A stretch of 64,000 bases of DNA, taken from positions 36,977 through 100,976 of IMG/VR virus record IMGVR_UViG_2898571807_000002. One strand, written 5' to 3'. Source of the DNA: a virus. Taxonomy: Duplodnaviria > Caudoviricetes. Numbering within the stretch: the stretch's first letter is position 1; the number at the start of each line of letters is the position of its first letter. The notes under the pieces were generated by a model. That model searched no databases. It was given only the letters and a program-made list of their open reading frames with translations, and was not told the origin of the DNA. Below are positions 16,215-37,519 of this stretch, one piece after another. Position numbers and translations under genes: made by a program.

Positions 16215-17351
16215 TCAGAGGGCTTCGACCGCCTCGCACCAGGCGGCAAGGTCCGCGGCCGGGTCCAGGGCCTTTGACCGGGCGAGGCACCGGTCGGAGG
16301 CTTCCGCCCACTGGACCGGGTCCTGCAGCGCCGTGACCGCCGACACCCACGCCTGCAGGTCGCCGCGCTCGGCGAAGATGCCCGCTTCGGCCAGCGACTC
16401 CGACAGGCCCGGGGTGCCGTTCGCGACCACCGGGATGCCCGATGCCATCGCCTCGACAGCGACACGGCCCCATGATTCGCTCGCCGAGGGCATCAGCAGG
16501 ATCCGGGTGCGGGCGTACACCTGCTCCCGCATCTGGTCGCCGGGGAGATGGTCGATGACCTCCACGTTCGGGAGTCCGCCGCGGCGCTCGACCTGGGTGC
16601 CGTAGGCGCCCTTCACGCCGAGGAACTCAAGGTCGGGAAGACGCTCGGCGAGCTGCCAGAACACCTCGCCGCCCTTGTCGGCGTTCAGGTTGACCAGGGT
16701 GATCCGATCGCCCGGGGTGGTGGCGTAGTCGCTGGTGAACACCGGCGGGCGCACCACGATGCTGCTGGTGGGGCGGAGACTTTCGGTGTACTCGCAGAAG
16801 TAGCCTTCCGCCTCGGCCTGCATGTGCAGCGAGTTGTACACCGCCAGCGCCGTCGACCCGCGGCCGACGTTCCGGAAGATCGTCGGGTGGGTGTTGTGGC
16901 ACACCGCGACGAACGGCCGTCCGAGCCCGCGGGCGAGCGCACCAGCCGCCGGGACGTTCTCGTGGTGCGCCACGATCACGTCGCTGGCCTTCGCTGCAGC
17001 GGCGAAGTCGAGGCTCGCCGCGAACGGCACCACCTTCACCCCGTCGACGTCGTAAGCCTCGTGGTCGGGCGAGTACCGGGACAGCCACACCGTCACCTCG
17101 TGGCCGCGGGCCACCAGGGCCCGCAGCATCGAGTGCAGCATCCACTCCGAACCGGCGTTGTGCCGCGGCGGGTAAGCGTGGACACGAGCGACGACCCGCA
17201 GTGGCTTCGCCGCGGTGCCGAGCCCCCGGAAATGCGAAACCGCCGGGTCCAGGATCTCGTCCTGACCGGCGGTCGACTTTCCCGAGGGCCTCCCGGGCGG
17301 CTTGGCTCTGGGCTTGCGGGGTCGGCTGGCGCGGCGGGGCGCCTCGGTCAC
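16215..17351 (-). CDS. GT-B (GT4-like) glycosyltransferase inside the head module
   Basis: HAYPPRHNAGSEWM N-terminus; LLMPSASESWGRVAVEAMASGIPVV (E-x7-E signature). Confidence 0.9.
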   Translation of the reverse strand: MTEAPRRASRPRKPRAKPPGRPSGKSTAGQDEILDPAVSHFRGLGTAAKPLRVVARVHAYPPRHNAGSEWMLHSMLRALVARGHEVTVWLSRYSPDHEAYDVDGVKVVPFAASLDFAAAAKASDVIVAHHENVPAAGALARGLGRPFVAVCHNTHPTIFRNVGRGSTALAVYNSLHMQAEAEGYFCEYTESLRPTSSIVVRPPVFTSDYATTPGDRITLVNLNADKGGEVFWQLAERLPDLEFLGVKGAYGTQVERRGGLPNVEVIDHLPGDQMREQVYARTRILLMPSASESWGRVAVEAMASGIPVVANGTPGLSESLAEAGIFAERGDLQAWVSAVTALQDPVQWAEASDRCLARSKALDPAADLAAWCEAVEAL

Positions 17352-18304
17352 GAGGTGACGCCCGCGCTGGTGTACTTCACGAACGCCTGCGCGTCACCCA
17401 TCACGAAGCCGTAGAACGCCTCCGCGAGCAGCAGCACCAGGTTCTCCTGGAAGGCACTGTGCACGCCGCCTTCCTCATCGATGTACGTCGCCTCCGCGGA
17501 GATCCGGATGGTGATGTCCATGCCCACGCCGTACGCGGCCTGCGACCAGTCACCGCCCAGGGCCCGCAGACCCGAGTCCGTGGAGGTGGACTGTCGGCGC
17601 TGCTTGCCGGACACGCCACGCGAGTACGCCAGCGGCTCACCGATGAGGGTGCCGGCGTTCGCCATGTTCGTGCCGGGCGTGGTGGTGTCGACCAGGATCG
17701 GCCGGCCCGTGGTGTCGGTGGCGAGCAGCAGCTTCGGCTTCAGCCGCGGGTCCGCGACGGTGCCGGTGAAGTCCCAGTCGTCGTCGACGACCAGGTCCAT
17801 GCCGTTCACCAGGTCCGCCCACAGACCGCCGTTGGCCTGGGAGGCGGTGCCGAGCTCGATCGCGTTGGTGGTCGCGGTGAGGTGCTCGGCGAACGGGCCC
17901 GCAGCGCCCTTCATCGACTTGCCGTGGATCGCGGCGTGGTCGAACGCCCGCGCGAACGCCGTCGGCAGGTCCCGCTGCAACTGCGTCCACAGGCCACCGG
18001 CGTTGGTCTTCACGACCTCTTCCGACACCGGAATCAGCACGGCGATCTTCTTCGGCGACATCTGCTTGACGTCGATACCGCCCGAGGACAGCGGCTTGCG
18101 GGCACCCGACCCGACCCAGTCTGCGGTCGGGACGTCCAGCGGGATCGGGATGGAGGTGTTCGCGTCGATCGACAGCGGCGCACGCTGCGCCAGCGACATG
18201 ATCGCGCTCTGTTCCACCGACTTTTCGAAGATCGGGCCCGCGAGCGTCCGCGGGAGGAGATTGTCGTTGACATCCGACAGGAGGATCGGGTCGGTGGTGG
18301 CCAC
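17348..18304 (-). CDS. Major capsid protein (HK97 fold)
   Basis: PKKIAVLIPVSEE...AFARAFDHAAIHG...GDWSQ...FQENLVLLLAE. Confidence 0.93.
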   Translation of the reverse strand: MATTDPILLSDVNDNLLPRTLAGPIFEKSVEQSAIMSLAQRAPLSIDANTSIPIPLDVPTADWVGSGARKPLSSGGIDVKQMSPKKIAVLIPVSEEVVKTNAGGLWTQLQRDLPTAFARAFDHAAIHGKSMKGAAGPFAEHLTATTNAIELGTASQANGGLWADLVNGMDLVVDDDWDFTGTVADPRLKPKLLLATDTTGRPILVDTTTPGTNMANAGTLIGEPLAYSRGVSGKQRRQSTSTDSGLRALGGDWSQAAYGVGMDITIRISAEATYIDEEGGVHSAFQENLVLLLAEAFYGFVMGDAQAFVKYTSAGVTS

Positions 18305-18316
18305 CTCAACCCCTTT

Positions 18317-19000
18317 CTAGCGGCGTCCCTTCAGGAGCCGCGAATTCACGAACCCCGCGAATTCGCTCGCGGGGTCCTTAGCTCTCGGTTGGTTGGCGCC
18401 CGACGCCTGCGTCCGGTCCGGTGCGGGTTTGCGCCGCTGCGGGGTGTCCGGCTTCGGCTTCGCCAGGTGCGGCTTGCGGTCGAGGAGGTCCTCCAGGTCC
18501 GCCTTGATCCGGTCGGTAGCGATCTCGCCGTCGTCGCCGATGTAGGCGTCCAGGTCGAGAAGCGCTTCCGGGTCGGTTTTGTCGGCGAACCCGTCCGCGG
18601 CCATCGCACGGACCTCGGACTTCACAGCCCGCTGCCGGATCCGGTGGATCTCCTGCTCGCGCTCGGTCAGCCGCGCCTGCAAACGCTGCGCCTCGGTCTG
18701 GTCGGCCTCGGCCGCCTCGCGGGCACGCTTGGCCAGCGGCTCCAGTTCCTGGTTCTTTCGCTCCAGCTCACGCAGACGCTTCCGCAGGTTCGCGGCCTCG
18801 GAGTTCTTCTTGCGGAGCTCAGCCTTGGCGGCCTTCTCGTCGAACGCGCCGCCCGCCTGGGGCTTGTCGTCCTCGGTGTCGTCGGCGCCGGTGTCGGTGA
18901 CCTCGCTGGTCTCCTGCTCCTGCTCCTCGGTCGCCGTGTCGTCGCCGGTGCTGTCGTCCTGCGCGGTCGTCTGCTCGGTGTCCGCGGTGTCGTCGGGCAT
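18317..19000 (-). CDS. Capsid scaffolding protein (internal start within the longer ORF)
   Basis: Acidic N-terminus, coiled coil, C-terminal KPAPDRTQASG; GGAGGG RBS before ATG 19000. Confidence 0.8.
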   Translation of the reverse strand: MPDDTADTEQTTAQDDSTGDDTATEEQEQETSEVTDTGADDTEDDKPQAGGAFDEKAAKAELRKKNSEAANLRKRLRELERKNQELEPLAKRAREAAEADQTEAQRLQARLTEREQEIHRIRQRAVKSEVRAMAADGFADKTDPEALLDLDAYIGDDGEIATDRIKADLEDLLDRKPHLAKPKPDTPQRRKPAPDRTQASGANQPRAKDPASEFAGFVNSRLLKGRR

Positions 19001-19468
19001 GATCGGGTAACCCTCCAGGGGTTCGGATAGGGACAACTCCCGCTCCAGGCGGGAAGAATCTGGGCGGTACAGCGACCACCAGCGGTCGATCGCGCGGCCC
19101 GTCCAATCGGGCCGGTTGTCGGCGGCGGCGCGGGCCCGCGCCTGCTCAGCCGATGCCGCGATCACAACCGTCTCGGTCGCGCGCAGCGACCGGGCGAGGC
19201 TCCTGCGCTGCTGCGGATCCGGCGCGGAACGGATCACCCACGCCGTCCCCGACTCCATCGCCGAGACCTGCCGCTCCAGCGCGGACCGCAGCACATGCGC
19301 CCGGTCCGCCACCTCGCGGGCGTGGTCGTGATGAGCGGTGGACCCGAGCTCTCGGCAGAGCCGGTCGAAGTCGATGACGGTGTCGCCGTCAGATGCCTGT
19401 TTGGCGACCCAGGTCGACTTTCCGGAAGCGGGCGGGCCGCACACCAACACGACCCGACGCACGATCAC
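18317..19468 (-). CDS. P-loop (AAA_33/kinase-like) domain, in frame with the scaffold
   Basis: Walker A GPPASGKST and IDFDRL; no stop codon before the scaffold start. Confidence 0.7.
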   Translation of the reverse strand: MIVRRVVLVCGPPASGKSTWVAKQASDGDTVIDFDRLCRELGSTAHHDHAREVADRAHVLRSALERQVSAMESGTAWVIRSAPDPQQRRSLARSLRATETVVIAASAEQARARAAADNRPDWTGRAIDRWWSLYRPDSSRLERELSLSEPLEGYPIMPDDTADTEQTTAQDDSTGDDTATEEQEQETSEVTDTGADDTEDDKPQAGGAFDEKAAKAELRKKNSEAANLRKRLRELERKNQELEPLAKRAREAAEADQTEAQRLQARLTEREQEIHRIRQRAVKSEVRAMAADGFADKTDPEALLDLDAYIGDDGEIATDRIKADLEDLLDRKPHLAKPKPDTPQRRKPAPDRTQASGANQPRAKDPASEFAGFVNSRLLKGRR

Positions 19469-21309
19469 CCCCGGGCGTCAAATGCCTTCCGCCACGCATG
19501 CATCTTGTCGCCCACATGGGCCGTGGCCTGCTCGTACAGCTGCTCCCAGTCCTGCACATGGGATGGCGGGACCCACAGCTTTCCTTCGAACACGGGCGCG
19601 ACGGTGCAGGAGCAATTAGATACAATTACTCCATTAGCTCGGTACCAGCCCGACTCCGTCTGAAAGTTGAAAACTTGGCCACGAAACTCACGGTGAGAGA
19701 GATCGACGATGCGGTCGCTCTCTACACGTCCGGAAAGACGTTCCAACAGGTCGCGGCCATACTTGGCGTAAACGCCAGCACCGCCTACGTCGCCATAACC
19801 CGTCGCGGGGTCAAAGCGCGACATGCTACCGCTGATAGGGCCATGCTTGACCAAGCGGTCAGTCTGTACGTCAGCGGCATGACCGGACCCGAGGTCCGGG
19901 ACGCCATCGGCATATCCACCAGCACGCTCCACCGGGAGTTGCGTAAACGTGGGATTCCTGCCCGCAGCCGCAGAACAAACATCCCATCTGCCGACGTGGT
20001 CTCCGCATACCTCGCCGGTGAAAGCCAACTCTCGCTCGCTACCCGGTACGGAACCTCGCGACCAGTGATCCGGCGGATCTTGGTCGAGCAAGGGGTTCAA
20101 CCGCGCGATCGGAGTGCGGCCAGTACGCTCGCGATGGCTGCGCTCACCGACGAACAGCGCGCCGACATGGTCAAAAATGCTCACGCGGCAGTCCGCGGGC
20201 GCGACGTCTCCATGGAAGAACGCATCTTGCGCTCGCAGAAGCGGGAACGGACCCAATCCCATGCGACTGGCCGTGAACGACAGTTCGGTCGCCACATCAG
20301 CTTCCCTGATGTGATCCCGCAGAAAGCGATCGGCCCCTACAACGTCGACTTTGCTGTCGGTTCCGTCGCCGTGGAAATCCTCGGGGGTACCTGGCACGCT
20401 TACAAGGCCGAGCATGCCCATCGCACGCCATACATCCTGAACCAGGGCTGGAACATGCTCTTCATCTGGGACAGACAGCAAGCTCCCCTGTGCATTGAGG
20501 CTGCTGAGTACGTCGTCGCCTTCGCGGAGGAGTCCAGCAGGCAGCCAACCCTGCACCGTGAGTACCGGGTGATTAGGGGTGATGCGAAGCTCGTGGCCTG
20601 CGGCGGTGCGCAGGACGACCAGTTCCCCCTCATAATCCCGTCGATAGCCAACTTCCGCGGCAGGGCCATCAACTAGCGTCCCGGCGGGCACACAGTGGTC
20701 GTGGAACTTGTACTGGCCTTCGCCCTCGAAGTTCCGGTTCGCTCGTCGGCCGGCGGTCTGCCGCGACTTGAAGACCGCGCCGCGGAGCGCCATCAAAGCG
20801 CAGAAGTAGCAGGGGTCAGAGTCTGTGATCCTCGCCCACGCAATCGCGCGGCGATCCTTCAGGACGCCCTGATGGATGGTGTCGCGTGCGGTGTCCGCGA
20901 CCGCTTTCTGCGCGGCGCCGATCACCTTGGTCTCGGCGTCTGCGAGGCGCCGCTCGATCGGCGGCGGGCTGTCACGTTGCGGGATCCACAGGTCCTTCGT
21001 CGCCCACCGCAGCGACGTGTCGATCTTCGTCTCCGGCACATCCGGCACGTCGATGTGGAAGGTCCCCGGCACGCGGGCGAGTTCGCGTTCGCTCTCGAAG
21101 TAGTCGGCGGCGAGCGACCCTGCCATGTCAGCGTGCTTGGTGATCGCCGCGTCCGCCGCGCGCAGCCACGCAGGCACCGTCGACCCGAATGACCCGAGCC
21201 TCACCAGCCGAAACGACGCAGCGATCTGCTTAGCGATCTCCTGCAGGATCTTGAGCTGCTGGCGGTGGTATTCAGCCGCCCGCGACTGCAGGCTCACCAG
21301 CCACCCCAC
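19465..21309 (-). CDS. MuF-like / capsid maturation protein containing an intein
   Basis: WARITDSDPCYFCALMALRG...FHDH-[intein]-CSCTVAP; lies between portal and scaffold. Confidence 0.85.
   Translation of the reverse strand: MGWLVSLQSRAAEYHRQQLKILQEIAKQIAASFRLVRLGSFGSTVPAWLRAADAAITKHADMAGSLAADYFESERELARVPGTFHIDVPDVPETKIDTSLRWATKDLWIPQRDSPPPIERRLADAETKVIGAAQKAVADTARDTIHQGVLKDRRAIAWARITDSDPCYFCALMALRGAVFKSRQTAGRRANRNFEGEGQYKFHDHCVPAGTLVDGPAAEVGYRRDYEGELVVLRTAAGHELRITPNHPVLTVQGWLPAGLLREGDDVLSSLNAQGSLLSVPDEEHVPALVQDVWRAMGMLGLVSVPGTPEDFHGDGTDSKVDVVGADRFLRDHIREADVATELSFTASRMGLGPFPLLRAQDAFFHGDVAPADCRVSIFDHVGALFVGERSHRERTGRTPIARLNPLLDQDPPDHWSRGSVPGSERELAFTGEVCGDHVGRWDVCSAAAGRNPTFTQLPVERAGGYADGVPDLGSGHAADVQTDRLVKHGPISGSMSRFDPATGYGDVGGAGVYAKYGRDLLERLSGRVESDRIVDLSHREFRGQVFNFQTESGWYRANGVIVSNCSCTVAPVFEGKLWVPPSHVQDWEQLYEQATAHVGDKMHAWRKAFDARG
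19615..20694 (-). mobile_element. Intein (Hint domain), 360 aa
   Basis: Block A CVPAGTLV, block B LRITPNHPVLT, block F/G VFNFQTESGWYRANGVIVSN/C; excision restores HDHCSC. Confidence 0.9.
19675..20676 (+). CDS. HTH-repeat plus DUF559/Vsr-like endonuclease encoded antisense within the intein
   Basis: Three HTH-like repeats (LYTSGKTFQQVAAILG, LYVSGMTGPEVRDAIG, YLAGESQLSLATRYG) followed by QKAIGPYNVDFAV..VAVEILGGTWH...GWNMLFIW; TTG start inferred. Confidence 0.8.
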   Translation: MATKLTVREIDDAVALYTSGKTFQQVAAILGVNASTAYVAITRRGVKARHATADRAMLDQAVSLYVSGMTGPEVRDAIGISTSTLHRELRKRGIPARSRRTNIPSADVVSAYLAGESQLSLATRYGTSRPVIRRILVEQGVQPRDRSAASTLAMAALTDEQRADMVKNAHAAVRGRDVSMEERILRSQKRERTQSHATGRERQFGRHISFPDVIPQKAIGPYNVDFAVGSVAVEILGGTWHAYKAEHAHRTPYILNQGWNMLFIWDRQQAPLCIEAAEYVVAFAEESSRQPTLHREYRVIRGDAKLVACGGAQDDQFPLIIPSIANFRGRAIN

Positions 21310-22705
21310 TCGATCCCTGCGGCGGCGTGGACTGCTCGGGGCCGTTCACGATCGTGTCCAACAGCGTCGCACCGCGGGCGCGCCGCCGATCAGACTGGAC
21401 CCGCTGCCTCTGCGACTCGGTGAGACCCACCATCTCCAACGTCACATCGCTGTCGGCCGGGAGAATCCCCGTCTGCACCAGCTTCACAGCCGCGTCGGTC
21501 TGGGATGCGATGGTCGGGGTTGCGGCGTTCCGCCATACCGTTTCGATCCGCCGCGCACGGTCCGGTACCTCGCCGTTCGCGACGAGCAGCGCCAGGCGTA
21601 GGACGTTTCCCCACACTGCGGACAAGACCGTCTGCTTCCGCTCGGCGCGCTTCACGAGCTGTGCCTCCGTCGAGCGGATCGCGTCCGCCGAGGCCGGGTT
21701 GTCGGTCGTGTAACCGAGATAGTGCGGCGGCAGACCAAGCTGGGTCGCCATGATCCGCGCATACAGGTCAACGATCTTCGTGTACGCGGACGGGTCGTAC
21801 GCGGCGAACGTCCCGACCGTGGGGATCTCACCGTCCTCGTCCCGCTCCAACGCAAGGACCCGGCCGATGTAGGTCTCCCACGCGCTCTTCGGGTTCCCCT
21901 CAGCATCCTGAAAGGCGCTCTCGGACGTGCCGAGGATGTACCGCTGCGGCGCCCCGTAGAACTCCCGCGCGACCTCCATCCCCAGCAACGTGCGGCACGC
22001 CGCGTCCGTGATCGACATGACCGCCGGGGTGATCTCCGACCGGCCCGACCGGTCCGCGACCCGCTGCCGGTTCGCAATCCGCACCACCGTGACGACACCC
22101 AGGCCGTGCAAGTCGCGGTCGACGACAATCCAGCCGCCGTCCGTGGACTCCTCCAGGTGGACTGTCTGCTCCGGCAGATACAGCACCGCCGCCTGCCGGT
22201 CGGCGTCCTTGTACAGCCGCAGCGCCGACGTCACCGCCCGTTTCCGCGCGTCATAGAACAGGGTCATGTCCAGCGGCGACTCGACCGTGATCACCGGCGG
22301 GTCGCCGTCCTCGTCCGCCGACCCCACCGCCACATACGACCGGCGGTAAATGAACGAGTCCAGGTGCGCGAGCTGCGACTCGGCGATCAGCTCGTTCGGC
22401 TCCCACAGGTCCTCAAGCTCGCCCGACTCCTCCGGATCGTCGGCGTACCGCCACGCCTCGATGTCGAGGCGCTGCTCCAGCGCGTCCACACCGATCTGCG
22501 GCCACCCGATCACCGTGTGAAGGCCCTTGAGCTGCGGGGGGATCGAAATCCCCAGGTCCCGGATGAGCTGCTCGCCGTTGTAGTAGCAGTCCCGCAGCTC
22601 CATCTGCCACCGGCACGCCATCAGGTCCGTGCGGAGCGCGTCGAGCAGGTTCGACTCGTCGTCCGACAGGTTCAGCAGCGGCAGGTCCGGGATCGTGACG
22701 GTCAC
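21272..22705 (-). CDS. Portal protein (SPP1 gp6-like)
   Basis: YYNGEQ...GWPQIGVDAL...GRSEI...NPASADAIR motifs. Confidence 0.93.
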   Translation of the reverse strand: MTVTIPDLPLLNLSDDESNLLDALRTDLMACRWQMELRDCYYNGEQLIRDLGISIPPQLKGLHTVIGWPQIGVDALEQRLDIEAWRYADDPEESGELEDLWEPNELIAESQLAHLDSFIYRRSYVAVGSADEDGDPPVITVESPLDMTLFYDARKRAVTSALRLYKDADRQAAVLYLPEQTVHLEESTDGGWIVVDRDLHGLGVVTVVRIANRQRVADRSGRSEITPAVMSITDAACRTLLGMEVAREFYGAPQRYILGTSESAFQDAEGNPKSAWETYIGRVLALERDEDGEIPTVGTFAAYDPSAYTKIVDLYARIMATQLGLPPHYLGYTTDNPASADAIRSTEAQLVKRAERKQTVLSAVWGNVLRLALLVANGEVPDRARRIETVWRNAATPTIASQTDAAVKLVQTGILPADSDVTLEMVGLTESQRQRVQSDRRRARGATLLDTIVNGPEQSTPPQGSSGVAGEPAVAGG

Positions 22706-24387
22706 GCCAGCACCACCGCCCTGCCCTTGCCGCGCCGGCCGATGCCCTTGCTCACCGCGTCGATACGCGCCTGCCACGCGAGTGTCGCCGCGACCGCAGC
22801 GTCGATCTTCCGCCGCGAATCCGGGTGCTCCTTGGCGATCTGCAAACCGGCGCGGGACGGGCGCCGGCGCGCATTCAGCACATGCCGCGTCAACGTGAAC
22901 GACCCGTCATGGGTGAGCTCACCGTTGATCACCGCCGCGTGGAACTGCTCCAACGCCCGCACGACCGCCTGCGGACGGTTCATCCACCACTCGATCGGGT
23001 GCGCCTGCGAAGACCGGACCCGCATCCGACGCCCGTAGGCGTACTCCCACTCCGCCACGAACGACCGCCAGTCCGCGGCAGGATCCGCGTAGAACCCGAC
23101 GACCTTGTACCTCTGGAACGCCGACCGGACCGCCGCCTCGACCTCCGCGGTCGGCACCCACCAGTCCTTGCCCGCCGGACCGTTCGGCTGCTCCCACACC
23201 GCGACCTCGAACAGAAACCCGTCCGACACCCGGCACCCGATCAGCGCGGTCGCATCAGCCACGCCCCGGTTGCGGTGCTTGGACCCGTCGAACCCCAGCG
23301 TGATCCGATCCCCCGGCGCCACCGTCTTCGACGGGTCCGCGCAACCCGCCCACTCGTGCGGCGCCAGCCAAGCATCCGTCGCGCCGGTCTGCGCGTTCAG
23401 GAAATAGCGCCGCGAATCCACCGGGTTCTTGCGGGTGTCGTAGAACTCGTCGACGATCCCGTCGAAGTCGTTCCACTCGATCGCCTCACCGAACGCCTCA
23501 AGAATCGCCGCCCGCAACTGATCCTCAGCCGACAAGTCCTCGCACTCACCCCACCGGTGGTCATACAGCAGCCGGGCCCGCCGCGACCGTCCCTCCTGAA
23601 TGTGCTCGGCCAGTTGGAACGTCGCCTCCGCGGTCGACTCCTCACCGGCGGCGAACATCGTGGTGGTCTCCAAGAACCACGTGCCCGCGCCCTTCTTCCG
23701 CTTCCGCAGGTTCCGGGTGACCGTGTCGTACATCCGCCGCAACTCCGGCTGGTTGTACAGGTGCGTCTCGTCGAACACCACGAACGTCTCCAGGCCGCCG
23801 TCCTTCGACGCCGACGACGCCGTCGACGGACGAATCTCCCCGCCCCCCGGCAGATAGATCCGCGTCAAGCCCGCGTCCATGCCCGGGATGTGCGACAGCA
23901 GCGCGTCTCCGTCGGTGAGGTTGAAGAACACCGTGTCGTAGACGTTGCCGGTCTGGCCCTCCTCAGTGGCCATGCACCGGATGAACGGGGACGTGACATG
24001 GCGACCCATCGGCTCACCCGGCTCGTACACATACCGGAACCCCAACCCCCACGGGTCCTCGTACACCTCACCGCCGGACGCCCAGCCCGCGAACCGGCAC
24101 GGCCCCAACGCCTCGAACACAGCGAGCCGACCACCGAGCCCCGACTTGTCGCAGCCCTTCGGCCGCGAGAAAAACGCCGAGTCATACAACCGCTGCGTGT
24201 TCTCCGGCTCGTCGCCAATCGCGTAGCAGTCGACGATGAAGCCCGTGAGCTCATCACCGTGGCTGACCGGCTGGCCCTGCACGTCGCCCCGGCCGTGGAC
24301 GACGAAGTACTCCATCCACACCGTCGCCAGCCACCCCAACGACCGGTGACGGTCATGCCCGGGGGCCCGGACCAGCGTGCGCGGCAT
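22702..24387 (-). CDS. Terminase large subunit
   Basis: SRPKGCDKS Walker A variant, VVFDETH Walker B, LGFDGS nuclease motif, KIDAAVA. Confidence 0.95.
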   Translation of the reverse strand: MPRTLVRAPGHDRHRSLGWLATVWMEYFVVHGRGDVQGQPVSHGDELTGFIVDCYAIGDEPENTQRLYDSAFFSRPKGCDKSGLGGRLAVFEALGPCRFAGWASGGEVYEDPWGLGFRYVYEPGEPMGRHVTSPFIRCMATEEGQTGNVYDTVFFNLTDGDALLSHIPGMDAGLTRIYLPGGGEIRPSTASSASKDGGLETFVVFDETHLYNQPELRRMYDTVTRNLRKRKKGAGTWFLETTTMFAAGEESTAEATFQLAEHIQEGRSRRARLLYDHRWGECEDLSAEDQLRAAILEAFGEAIEWNDFDGIVDEFYDTRKNPVDSRRYFLNAQTGATDAWLAPHEWAGCADPSKTVAPGDRITLGFDGSKHRNRGVADATALIGCRVSDGFLFEVAVWEQPNGPAGKDWWVPTAEVEAAVRSAFQRYKVVGFYADPAADWRSFVAEWEYAYGRRMRVRSSQAHPIEWWMNRPQAVVRALEQFHAAVINGELTHDGSFTLTRHVLNARRRPSRAGLQIAKEHPDSRRKIDAAVAATLAWQARIDAVSKGIGRRGKGRAVVLA

Positions 24388-36685: not shown

Positions 36686-37519
36686 TCAGCGCGTCACCTG
36701 CTGATCGGCCTCCTCCTCGTACTCTTCGTACTCCTCCTTCGACATCACCCTGCGGCAGTCCTCGTTGTTGCAGTGGATGCGGTCATCGTCGTGGAGGAAC
36801 AGAGACCGGCGGCGGCACCGGGGGCACGGCAGCGGCTTGTGTCGGAGCGGTGGACGGGTGGACGTCGCCGCTTGGAGTTTCGAGTGCTCGATCAGGACTT
36901 CCCGGCCGAAGTCCTCGGCGAGGTCAGGGTGGGCGAGGACGGCATCGACGCGTTGCAGCATCCATGCGATGGCGGAGGTGAGGGCCGGAGCGTTCGCGCC
37001 ACGGTAAGGCGGATGTGGCCAGCCTTGCGTGTCCCGGTATGCGATCTCCCAGGAGGTGAGCCAGCGGAGCAGGTCATCAAGGTCGTCCTGCCCAGGTGAC
37101 GGGGTTCGCGCTGACTTCGTCGAAGAGACCCGGTCTGTGATGGCCTGGCCAGGTGCCTGGTATCCGTCGGTCATCGTGAGGCGCAGCGAGGCGAGTTCGT
37201 CGAGGTCCGCGAGAGAACGGCGGATGGACGCCACGCACGACGCGCACCACACCGGTTCTCCTGGCCGGGGGATCCAGCCGGGCGGCTCAGGCTCCTCGGG
37301 ACGTTCTGGGCGCGGCCCAGCAACGTCCTCCCCGTGCTCCGCGACGGCAGCCCGCCATTCAGCGAGCACCTCTGGGAGGGCGCTGCACTCGGCGTCCCAT
37401 TCCTGCCGGGCTTCCTCGTACGTGGCGAGAGCTCTGCGGTAGCCCGCATTGCAGCGCCCCGGGCAGATCGAGCCGCCGGCGGCTGGCGTGTCCAACTCGA
37501 TGTCCATCGCGTTCGTCAT
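36686..37519 (-). CDS. Zn-finger protein at the end of the early operon (probable late activator)
   Basis: CPGRCN, WCASC, CPRC...CNNEDC; position. Confidence 0.6.
   Translation of the reverse strand: MTNAMDIELDTPAAGGSICPGRCNAGYRRALATYEEARQEWDAECSALPEVLAEWRAAVAEHGEDVAGPRPERPEEPEPPGWIPRPGEPVWCASCVASIRRSLADLDELASLRLTMTDGYQAPGQAITDRVSSTKSARTPSPGQDDLDDLLRWLTSWEIAYRDTQGWPHPPYRGANAPALTSAIAWMLQRVDAVLAHPDLAEDFGREVLIEHSKLQAATSTRPPLRHKPLPCPRCRRRSLFLHDDDRIHCNNEDCRRVMSKEEYEEYEEEADQQVTR

Follow-up and report, generated by a model that had tools for sequence, protein, structure and literature searches.

What does a stretch of about 1 kb encode when one strand reads as a protein-splicing element within a phage head-morphogenesis gene and the other reads as a nuclease? 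This question is raised by a provirus (Duplodnaviria; Caudoviricetes) of about 68-70% guanine-plus-cytosine (GC) content, held in the 100,976-bp IMG/VR record IMGVR_UViG_2898571807_000002; the window analyzed here comprises the 64,000 nucleotides (nt) from position 36,977 to position 100,976 of that record. On the minus strand of the window, a VG15/MuF-like head-morphogenesis (minor capsid) gene contains a class-1 intein, and beneath the intein the plus strand carries an open reading frame (ORF) for a putative homing endonuclease. The pair had been pointed out in an earlier reading of the letters alone (hereafter, the original prediction). Our analysis indicates that the locus is very probably a mobile intein of the MuF/minor-capsid site, with its splicing and homing functions split between the two DNA strands.

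In the minus frame, residues 206-565 of the MuF-like precursor form a segment that starts with CVPAGTLV, ends with VIVSN directly before CSC, and thus separates KFHDH from CSC. Three intein-free proteins of 250-251 residues (P0124, P0125 and P0126), which share 76-82% identity with the N-extein, read ...KFHDHCSCTV... at this point. Because these proteins have nothing between KFHDH and CSCTV, the 360 residues are an insertion exactly at the predicted splice junction. The gene order around P0124 (portal-VG15-AAA_33-capsid-GT4) is syntenic with that of the window, and the GC content changes from about 0.70 outside the insert to 0.58-0.64 across it. A scan of IMG/VR with the N-extein recovered distant relatives alone (25-35% identity) and no close intein-free DNA allele.

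The residues expected of a splicing domain are in place. The Cys1 codon lies at 20692-20694, and Cys occupies residue 1 in 139 of 145 relatives. Block B has the TxxH motif (T39-P-N-H42), and T39, H42 and G49 are invariant in an alignment of 56 intein relatives (A2). The C-terminal Asn followed by Cys+1 is found in all of the 140 aligned relatives. The A2 profile, compared with PDB sequences, matched the Mtu RecA intein (E 1.5e-10) and those of M. jannaschii KlbA (5.9e-10) and P. horikoshii RadA (1.4e-9), and Foldseek with the AlphaFold2 (AF2) model of the intein retrieved intein splicing domains (2imz, E 2e-4, probability 1.00). [quoted passage not shown] Judged by sequence profile and modeled fold, the minus frame is a true Hint domain.

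The plus-strand ORF lies wholly within the intein and overlaps block B and the whole Hint N-lobe, which stands opposite the catalytic core and C-terminal tail of the nuclease. The stop-free plus frame is longer than the gene (19393-20676); the part that matches homologues begins at the TTG at 19675. The two frames are codon-aligned, with plus position 1 opposite minus position 3 and position 2 opposite position 2. The plus product matched Pfam HTH_23, a helix-turn-helix (HTH) family, at 33.9 bits (cut-off 24.6), together with several further HTH families. Its AF2 model had a mean pLDDT of 90.0 and consisted of helical HTH modules at residues 7-43, 55-91 and 105-138, a helical connector, and an alpha/beta domain at residues 195-311 with block-mean pLDDT values mostly of 92-97 and a dip to 70-81 at residues 231-250. 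The window copy has three HTH modules and most relatives have two.

Structural comparison placed the alpha/beta domain among known nucleases. VIA-align against 48,161 PDB representative chains gave as its top three Vsr (1cw0, Z 9.1, 108 residues aligned, root-mean-square deviation 2.5), the DUF559-like 3hrl (Z 8.3) and I-Bth0305I (3r3p, Z 8.2, 18% identity), and the HTH modules matched Tc3 transposase, GcrA and paired-like DNA-binding domains (Z 5.8-7.5). A Foldseek search with the complete nuclease model had no match at E <= 1e-3; the exhaustive aligner was the one that found Vsr. By sequence, the family profile matched 3hrl (E 1.8e-4), and the window protein by itself matched MTES_1575 (PF18741) weakly (E 0.13). 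Among 199 nuclease homologues in the protein database, many are labelled 'very-short-patch-repair endonuclease' by the Joint Genome Institute, and several carry precomputed PF18741 or PF04480 matches. Nine residues (Y222, N223, D225, E234, G237, G238, H241, R250 and W259) are invariant in a 38-sequence alignment (A1), and all are present in the window copy. Three of them, D225, E234 and H241, lie in the motif YNxD...VAVEILGGxWH and are the putative catalytic residues, by analogy with Vsr and DUF559. The plus frame is, on its model, a confidently folded HTH plus Vsr/DUF559-like (PD-(D/E)XK-type) nuclease.

These results are in accord with the original prediction, which had described a 360-residue intein that ends in Ser-Asn before Cys+1 and splits HDHCSC, all at coordinates that proved correct. 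It had also stated that the intein centre lacks LAGLIDADG and HNH motifs, and Pfam finds neither there. Its plus-strand ORF with three HTH repeats and a DUF559/Vsr-like nuclease is borne out by the domain, model and fold matches above, and its location wholly inside the intein and across block B by the coordinates. Profile searches of both frames agree with these assignments.

According to the AF2 models, the DNA is doubly structured in two places: about 117 codons, where intein residues 8-124 stand opposite nuclease residues 217-333, and about 41 codons, where intein residues 300-340 stand opposite nuclease residues 1-41. Within 20323-20387, a stretch of 50-65 nt is 83-88% identical in DNA to Salmonella Jerseyvirus phages despite a large difference in GC content. 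Its plus strand reads as the nuclease core YNVDFAVGSVAVEILGG and its minus strand as PEDFHGDG..VDVV, and it is the most constrained doubly coding piece. That the minus-frame EDFHGDG..VDVV works as an intein motif was considered as the main driver of this conservation and rejected; the stretch mirrors the plus-strand VAVEILGG, a core of DUF559 type, where pN/pS, the ratio of non-synonymous to synonymous change, is the lower in the plus frame (0.28 vs 0.87).

An open antisense frame is in itself of little weight at this base composition. The codon-aligned register is the cheapest for keeping both frames open, because a stop arises opposite TTA, CTA and TCA alone; in this register, the nuclease gene would need to avoid only these three codons. 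We estimated P ~0.33 for 281 open codons in a codon-aligned antisense frame of a 68% GC window, so the antisense ORF is not significant by its length. A 609-residue plus-strand ORF at 17201-19030, antisense to the capsid and scaffold-like genes, looks like a typical spurious high-GC codon-aligned ORF and serves as a useful negative control. The significance of the nuclease ORF rests instead on its domain and fold matches, the conservation of both frames at low GC, the pattern of substitutions, and the codon bias at a -10-like box. As to conservation, in each of the 145 loci examined an open minus frame lay across the nuclease match, always in one codon register; it covered the whole match (coverage 1.0) in 143 of these and 0.90 and 0.59 of it in the other two, where the match had been delimited too generously. 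Among the 24 loci that fall below 0.55 in GC (38-55%), the per-locus chance of openness ranged from 7e-9 to 5e-2, and the simple product over them was about 1e-87, an upper bound on significance as the loci are related and non-independent.

We next turn to selection on the two strands. The closest relative of the window locus, L151, is 90% identical to it, and 1352 nt could be aligned gap-free with 138 differences. The exteins accounted for 32 differences, 24 of them at minus-frame wobble positions (26 synonymous and 6 non-synonymous in the minus frame; 4 and 28 in the plus frame). The central 810 nt (19675-20484), comprising the HTH modules, connector and nuclease core, had 90 differences, 64 of which fell at minus position 1, the plus-frame wobble (minus, 20 synonymous and 70 non-synonymous; plus, 60 and 30), and only 2 of the 7 changes in the nuclease catalytic core altered the nuclease. 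The last 60 nt of the intein (19615-19674; block F/G, 20 codons) had 4 differences, all at minus wobble positions (minus, 4 and 0; plus, 0 and 4). In the Hint N-lobe, the 12 differences were mixed (5, 0 and 7 at minus positions 1, 2 and 3; minus, 9 and 3; plus, 5 and 7).

The same pattern was seen family-wide in 77 pairs at 70-97% identity, which are related pairs whose figures describe a pattern and are not independent tests: pN/pS was 0.28 (plus) and 0.87 (minus) in the nuclease core, 2.17 and 0.16 in block F/G, and 0.69 and 0.40 where the Hint N-lobe overlaps the nuclease tail. Within the centre of the intein, purifying selection thus acts on the plus frame in place of the minus frame. The minus-frame pN/pS of the central linker was 0.84-1.21, and the constraint on the linker in that frame is apparently to stay stop-free.

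Signals for the expression of the nuclease are embedded in the splicing blocks themselves. The TACAAT box of the window is the antisense of an Ile-Val codon pair of block G, ATT-GTA, and both of these codons are rare in the window genome. Ile-Val stands at this place in 50 relatives; TACAAT is present in 25 of them, compared with 0.72 expected from each locus's own codon usage, and GTA encodes the Val in 40, compared with about 3.4 expected. When either of two offsets from the Asn codon (6 or 9) was allowed, synonymous resampling gave 13.8 loci expected to have TAnnnT and 3.1 to have TAnAAT, and 100 and 67 of the 140 loci, respectively, had them. No conserved -35 element was seen upstream of the box among relatives; only the Cys codons of the C-x-C motif appeared there. 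In 115 of 139 loci, the start codon of the nuclease is formed by the strand opposite the conserved His codon of block F (ATG 76, GTG 37, TTG 2), and a Shine-Dalgarno (SD) sequence (GGAG, GAGG or AGGA 4-16 nt upstream of the start) was present in 100 of 139 loci, compared with 34.7 expected. The box, the selection on both strands and the conservation of the antisense ORF had all been proposed or raised in the original prediction, and each is upheld by the comparison across homologues.

The element is widespread. A scan of IMG/VR with the single nuclease protein gave no match, and a profile was needed; the profile scan gave at least 556 IMG/VR loci (80 kept) and 57 loci in GTDB species genomes, the latter spanning Actinomycetota, Chloroflexota, Pseudomonadota, Bacteroidota, Bacillota, the candidate phyla radiation (CPR), Cyanobacteria and others. 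By tblastn, the nuclease was found in 126 cultured phage records (62 from Salmonella [Jerseyvirus], 15 from Pseudomonas, 11 from Gordonia, 8 from Klebsiella, 6 from Escherichia, and others), almost always beneath a coding sequence annotated as 'head morphogenesis', 'minor capsid' or MuF on the opposite strand; the Gordonia phages Malisha, Angelicage, Vivi2 and Fosterous have the same layout. Of the N-exteins of 114 relatives, 40 matched Phage_Mu_F, 28 VG15 and 8 Phage_min_cap2 in Pfam, which form one superfamily, and the junction is constant among relatives as C..C....H(P)(N/R/H) followed by C.C. One of these 114 N-exteins itself matches PT-HINT, Hint_2, Vint and Intein_splicing, which suggests, from its sequence, that this locus has another intein upstream of the usual site.

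Annotation of such loci is uneven. In a Streptomyces genome and two metagenome contigs (L004:4001-5011, L005:4001-4927 and L007:4001-4858), the public calls keep the nuclease ORF and leave a gap at the MuF-plus-intein gene. The loss of the MuF-plus-intein gene in favor of the nuclease ORF is a systematic annotation error. In E. coli phage Snoke, the intein is marked and the nuclease is missed.

A free-standing homologue of the nuclease was found in Acinetobacter phage P1068 (OQ689089.1) at L154:1974-2867 on the plus strand (hhalign probability 99.9%, E 6.7e-32 vs A1). It is convergent to an intein-less head-morphogenesis gene of 258 residues (L154:2861-3637, minus strand) that ends soon after an LPMCKC motif, and the 3' ends of the two genes overlap by 7 nt. 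The frame opposite the P1068 nuclease is not open, and the GGxWH motif is replaced. This free-standing gene may be the ancestral or an escaped state of the intein-borne nuclease.

A mobile intein divided between the strands would work as follows. The minus strand would be read within the late head-morphogenesis gene, giving class-1 Hint lobes (residues 1-124 and 291-360) joined by an unstructured linker of about 165 residues; after translation, the intein would excise and ligate KFHDH to CSC, restoring the MuF-like protein. Transcription of the nuclease would begin from a -10 element of its own, run antisense to the late operon and be independent of the late transcript. Its tandem HTH modules would bind DNA, and it would cut or nick the intein-less MuF allele in a co-resident phage genome near the coding site of the HDH-CSC junction, a target deduced from the protein junction only. 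Recombinational repair would then copy the whole intein-plus-nuclease unit into that allele, and splicing would keep MuF functional after homing. Indirect evidence for homing is that the nuclease gene occupies one and the same intein, at a single MuF site, in all of the loci examined, and that alleles with and without the intein are found among close relatives.

Several observations weigh against this interpretation. On the intein side, the penultimate residue in the window is Ser and not the usual His, which is present in about 75 relatives; the ending VSN followed by C is common to 51 of 140 relatives, and some inteins splice without a penultimate His. The match of the single sequence to Pfam Intein_splicing is below threshold (E 8e-5, 22.9 bits, gathering score 35.8), as is that of the nuclease to DUF559 (PF04480; E 0.033, 14.5 bits, cut-off 20.6). 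A sigma-70 consensus scan of 19300-21400 found no full -35/-10 promoter and no terminator. In the window copy, as in L151, the block F His is replaced by Gln (CAA, hence the TTG start) and GGAGG or any other SD sequence is absent. The locus counts and the pN/pS pairs are phylogenetically related and not independent events, and the statistics are inflated by shared ancestry. Finally, we found no transcript, protein, splicing or cleavage data for any member of the family.

Because of the TTG start and the missing SD sequence, the present activity of the window nuclease is uncertain, and it is perhaps weakly expressed or decaying. The locus could accordingly be a relic, in which the intein splices and the antisense nuclease of this provirus is no longer expressed or active; this would correspond to the post-fixation stage of a homing cycle, with the dual coding being historical. 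We consider it unlikely that decay has gone so far. Relatives have ATG or GTG starts in 113 of 139 cases and SD sequences in 100 of 139, from which the window copy departs, no -35 element was found, and the frame could stay open cheaply in a high-GC window (P ~0.33); yet the ORF has no frameshift or stop, the invariant residues of the catalytic core are all intact, the TACAAT box is retained, and the comparison with L151 gives the plus frame 60 synonymous changes in the centre as against 30 non-synonymous ones, with few changes that alter the core (2/7).

The antisense protein might instead be a regulator or an exclusion or defense factor, for example an HTH repressor-nuclease directed against competing phages or host DNA, for which the intein is a safe harbor. 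Its three HTH modules are of the kind seen in transcription factors or transposases, Vsr acts as a repair nickase and not as a homing enzyme, and the homing role of the nuclease is proposed from sequence and models. We nevertheless regard such a role as very improbable. In 145/145 loci the gene sits in the intein at a single MuF-superfamily site with an invariant C-x-C junction, and close relatives lack the whole unit exactly at that junction, which together are a signature of site-specific homing. Moreover, I-Bth0305I, which resembles it in structure, has been proven to be a homing endonuclease (PMC3239194), and if the protein excluded an intein-less competitor by cleaving the MuF gene of that phage, the mechanism would be that of homing itself.

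That the plus ORF is a by-product of the high-GC minus gene and encodes nothing, the intein centre being a degenerate in-frame endonuclease domain, has next to no chance of being correct: long spurious codon-aligned antisense ORFs are common here, as the 609-residue example and the P of ~0.33 for openness illustrate, but the plus product exceeds the Pfam cut-off for HTH_23, its model reaches a pLDDT of 90 compared with 30-48 for the minus-frame centre, its Vsr fold match has a Z of 9.1, the plus frame is open in relatives at 38-55% GC, substitutions are concentrated at plus-frame wobble sites, and the P1068 homologue stands free with no open frame opposite.

The locus belongs to a run of late structural genes on the minus strand, in the order terminase, portal, VG15/MuF-like, scaffold-like and capsid (ORF list). 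The gene 3' of MuF (18317-19468, minus strand) has a P-loop kinase-like N-terminus (GPPASGKST) followed by an acidic coiled-coil scaffold-like tail, an unusual fusion at the scaffold position; its counterparts in L151 and in the P0124 contig carry Pfam AAA_33. The coordinates of the features are given in Table 1.

Table 1. Positions in the window of the intein, the putative antisense nuclease gene and the surrounding genes
Feature	Position	Strand	Basis
Terminase	22702-24387	-	ORF list
Portal	21272-22777	-	ORF list
VG15/MuF-like head-morphogenesis (minor capsid) precursor, 614 residues including intein	19465-21309	-	ORF list; translation; Pfam VG15 E 3e-42; PHROG head-maturation families
N-extein, 205 residues, C-terminal end ...YKFHDH	20695-21309	-	Pfam VG15 E 1.5e-36; 82% identity to P0124
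Class-1 intein, 360 residues (Cys1...Ser359-Asn360, then Cys+1)	19615-20694	-	Translation; profile; fold; intein-free alleles
Hint N-lobe, residues 1-124 (block B TPNHP at 20566-20580)	20323-20694	-	AF2; alignment A2
Central linker, residues 125-290, predicted unstructured	19825-20322	-	AF2 pLDDT 30-48; pN/pS
Hint C-lobe, residues 291-360, blocks F and G (...GQVFNFQTESGWYRANGVIVSN)	19615-19824	-	AF2 pLDDT 66-98; pN/pS
C-extein, 49 residues, N-terminal end CSCTVAPV	19468-19614 (stop codon 19465-19467)	-	Translation; near-identity to P0124 C-terminus
TACAAT -10-like box	19621-19626	+	Reverse complement of ATT-GTA (Ile357-Val358, block G); about 48 nt upstream of TTG start
Putative antisense homing-endonuclease gene, 333 codons, TTG start, TAG stop at 20674-20676	19675-20676	+	ORF list; homologues; AF2
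Three tandem HTH modules, nuclease residues 1-138	19675-20088	+	Pfam HTH_23, HTH_17, HTH_28; AF2
Vsr/DUF559-like nuclease domain, residues 195-311	20257-20607	+	Structure alignment; profile

As regards known systems, the original prediction pointed to reports of out-of-frame intein endonucleases from actinophages and called the layout rare, though not without precedent, and Gosselin, Arsenault and Gogarten (bioRxiv 10.1101/2025.01.02.630785, version of October 2025) do report inteins with 'anti-sense VSR-like' endonucleases in a survey of PhagesDB. They state that the minor capsid inteins all have non-canonical endonucleases and call such architectures rare; in their case, too, the in-frame centre has no recognizable structure and the antisense product matches Vsr 1CW0 (Z 10.6). 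The window element shares with theirs the minor capsid/MuF host gene, a contiguous intein, a centre without a fold, an antisense Vsr core (Z 10.6 in theirs and 9.1 here) and a helical region N-terminal to the nuclease, and the Gordonia phages with the same layout are the kind of dataset that they surveyed. Because that preprint already describes the layout, the window is a new example and not a new kind; it adds supporting statistics and no new principle. Unlike their PhagesDB set, the copy described here lies in an uncultured high-GC provirus from IMG/VR, and the breadth differs as well (at least 556 loci in IMG/VR, 57 species genomes of many phyla and, among cultured phages, 126, of which 62 are from Salmonella). 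The words 'promoter', 'Salmonella' and 'metagenom' are absent from the main text of the preprint, and neither the breadth nor the embedded expression signals are mentioned in it.

Other arrangements of inteins and endonucleases are related to this one to varying degrees. Some inteins, that of Synechocystis DnaX among them, are reported to carry LAGLIDADG ORFs on the antisense strand (Gorbalenya 1998, cited through 10.1101/2025.01.02.630785). There, too, a homing-endonuclease ORF lies opposite a contiguous, spliceable intein, but the nuclease family (Vsr/DUF559-like plus HTH here), host gene and insertion site differ from those of the window element. In the 'fractured genes', a Vsr-like endonuclease gene lies between the halves of a split intein (Dassa et al. 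2009, PMC2677866). Those systems and I-Bth0305I (Taylor et al. 2011, PMC3239194) resemble the window in having an intein-associated Vsr-fold endonuclease as a separate gene with its own expression signals, mainly in phages. In contrast to the fractured genes, where the intein is split and the endonuclease gene is non-overlapping between the halves, the intein here is one polypeptide and the nuclease gene is fully overlapped in antisense. I-Bth0305I belongs to the EDxHD family, and its likeness to the window nuclease, which has the motif YNxD...VAVE(I/V)(L/F)GGxWH, was measured by structure only (catalytic domain, Z 8.2). Canonical bifunctional inteins such as PI-SceI and PI-MtuI also have Hint lobes with about 1 kb between them that supplies a homing endonuclease, and they are likewise inserted where an essential gene is conserved; there, the endonuclease is an in-frame LAGLIDADG or HNH domain of the same polypeptide, whereas here an unstructured linker is combined with a separate antisense product.

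For gene annotation, the practical effect is that callers drop the MuF gene for the nuclease ORF, or overlook the nuclease, even in Salmonella and E. coli phages that have been studied well. The HTH-plus-Vsr nuclease is itself a candidate new enzyme for nicking or cutting DNA at specific sequences. Among bacteria and phages, it is rare for a long stretch to code on both strands for products that both fold, and the element is a clean natural case with hundreds of relatives, which makes it good material for studying how two proteins share DNA. On balance, we think it somewhat probable that the MuF-site intein with its antisense Vsr-like endonuclease is a single, old, pan-bacterial lineage and not a rare actinophage curiosity, with the -10 box, SD sequence and start codon hard-wired into blocks G and F, about 160 doubly folding codons locking two selfish functions together, and free-standing relatives like that of P1068 possibly marking its origin. 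The arrangement would represent one route by which a homing endonuclease that once stood free can join with an intein without gene fusion.

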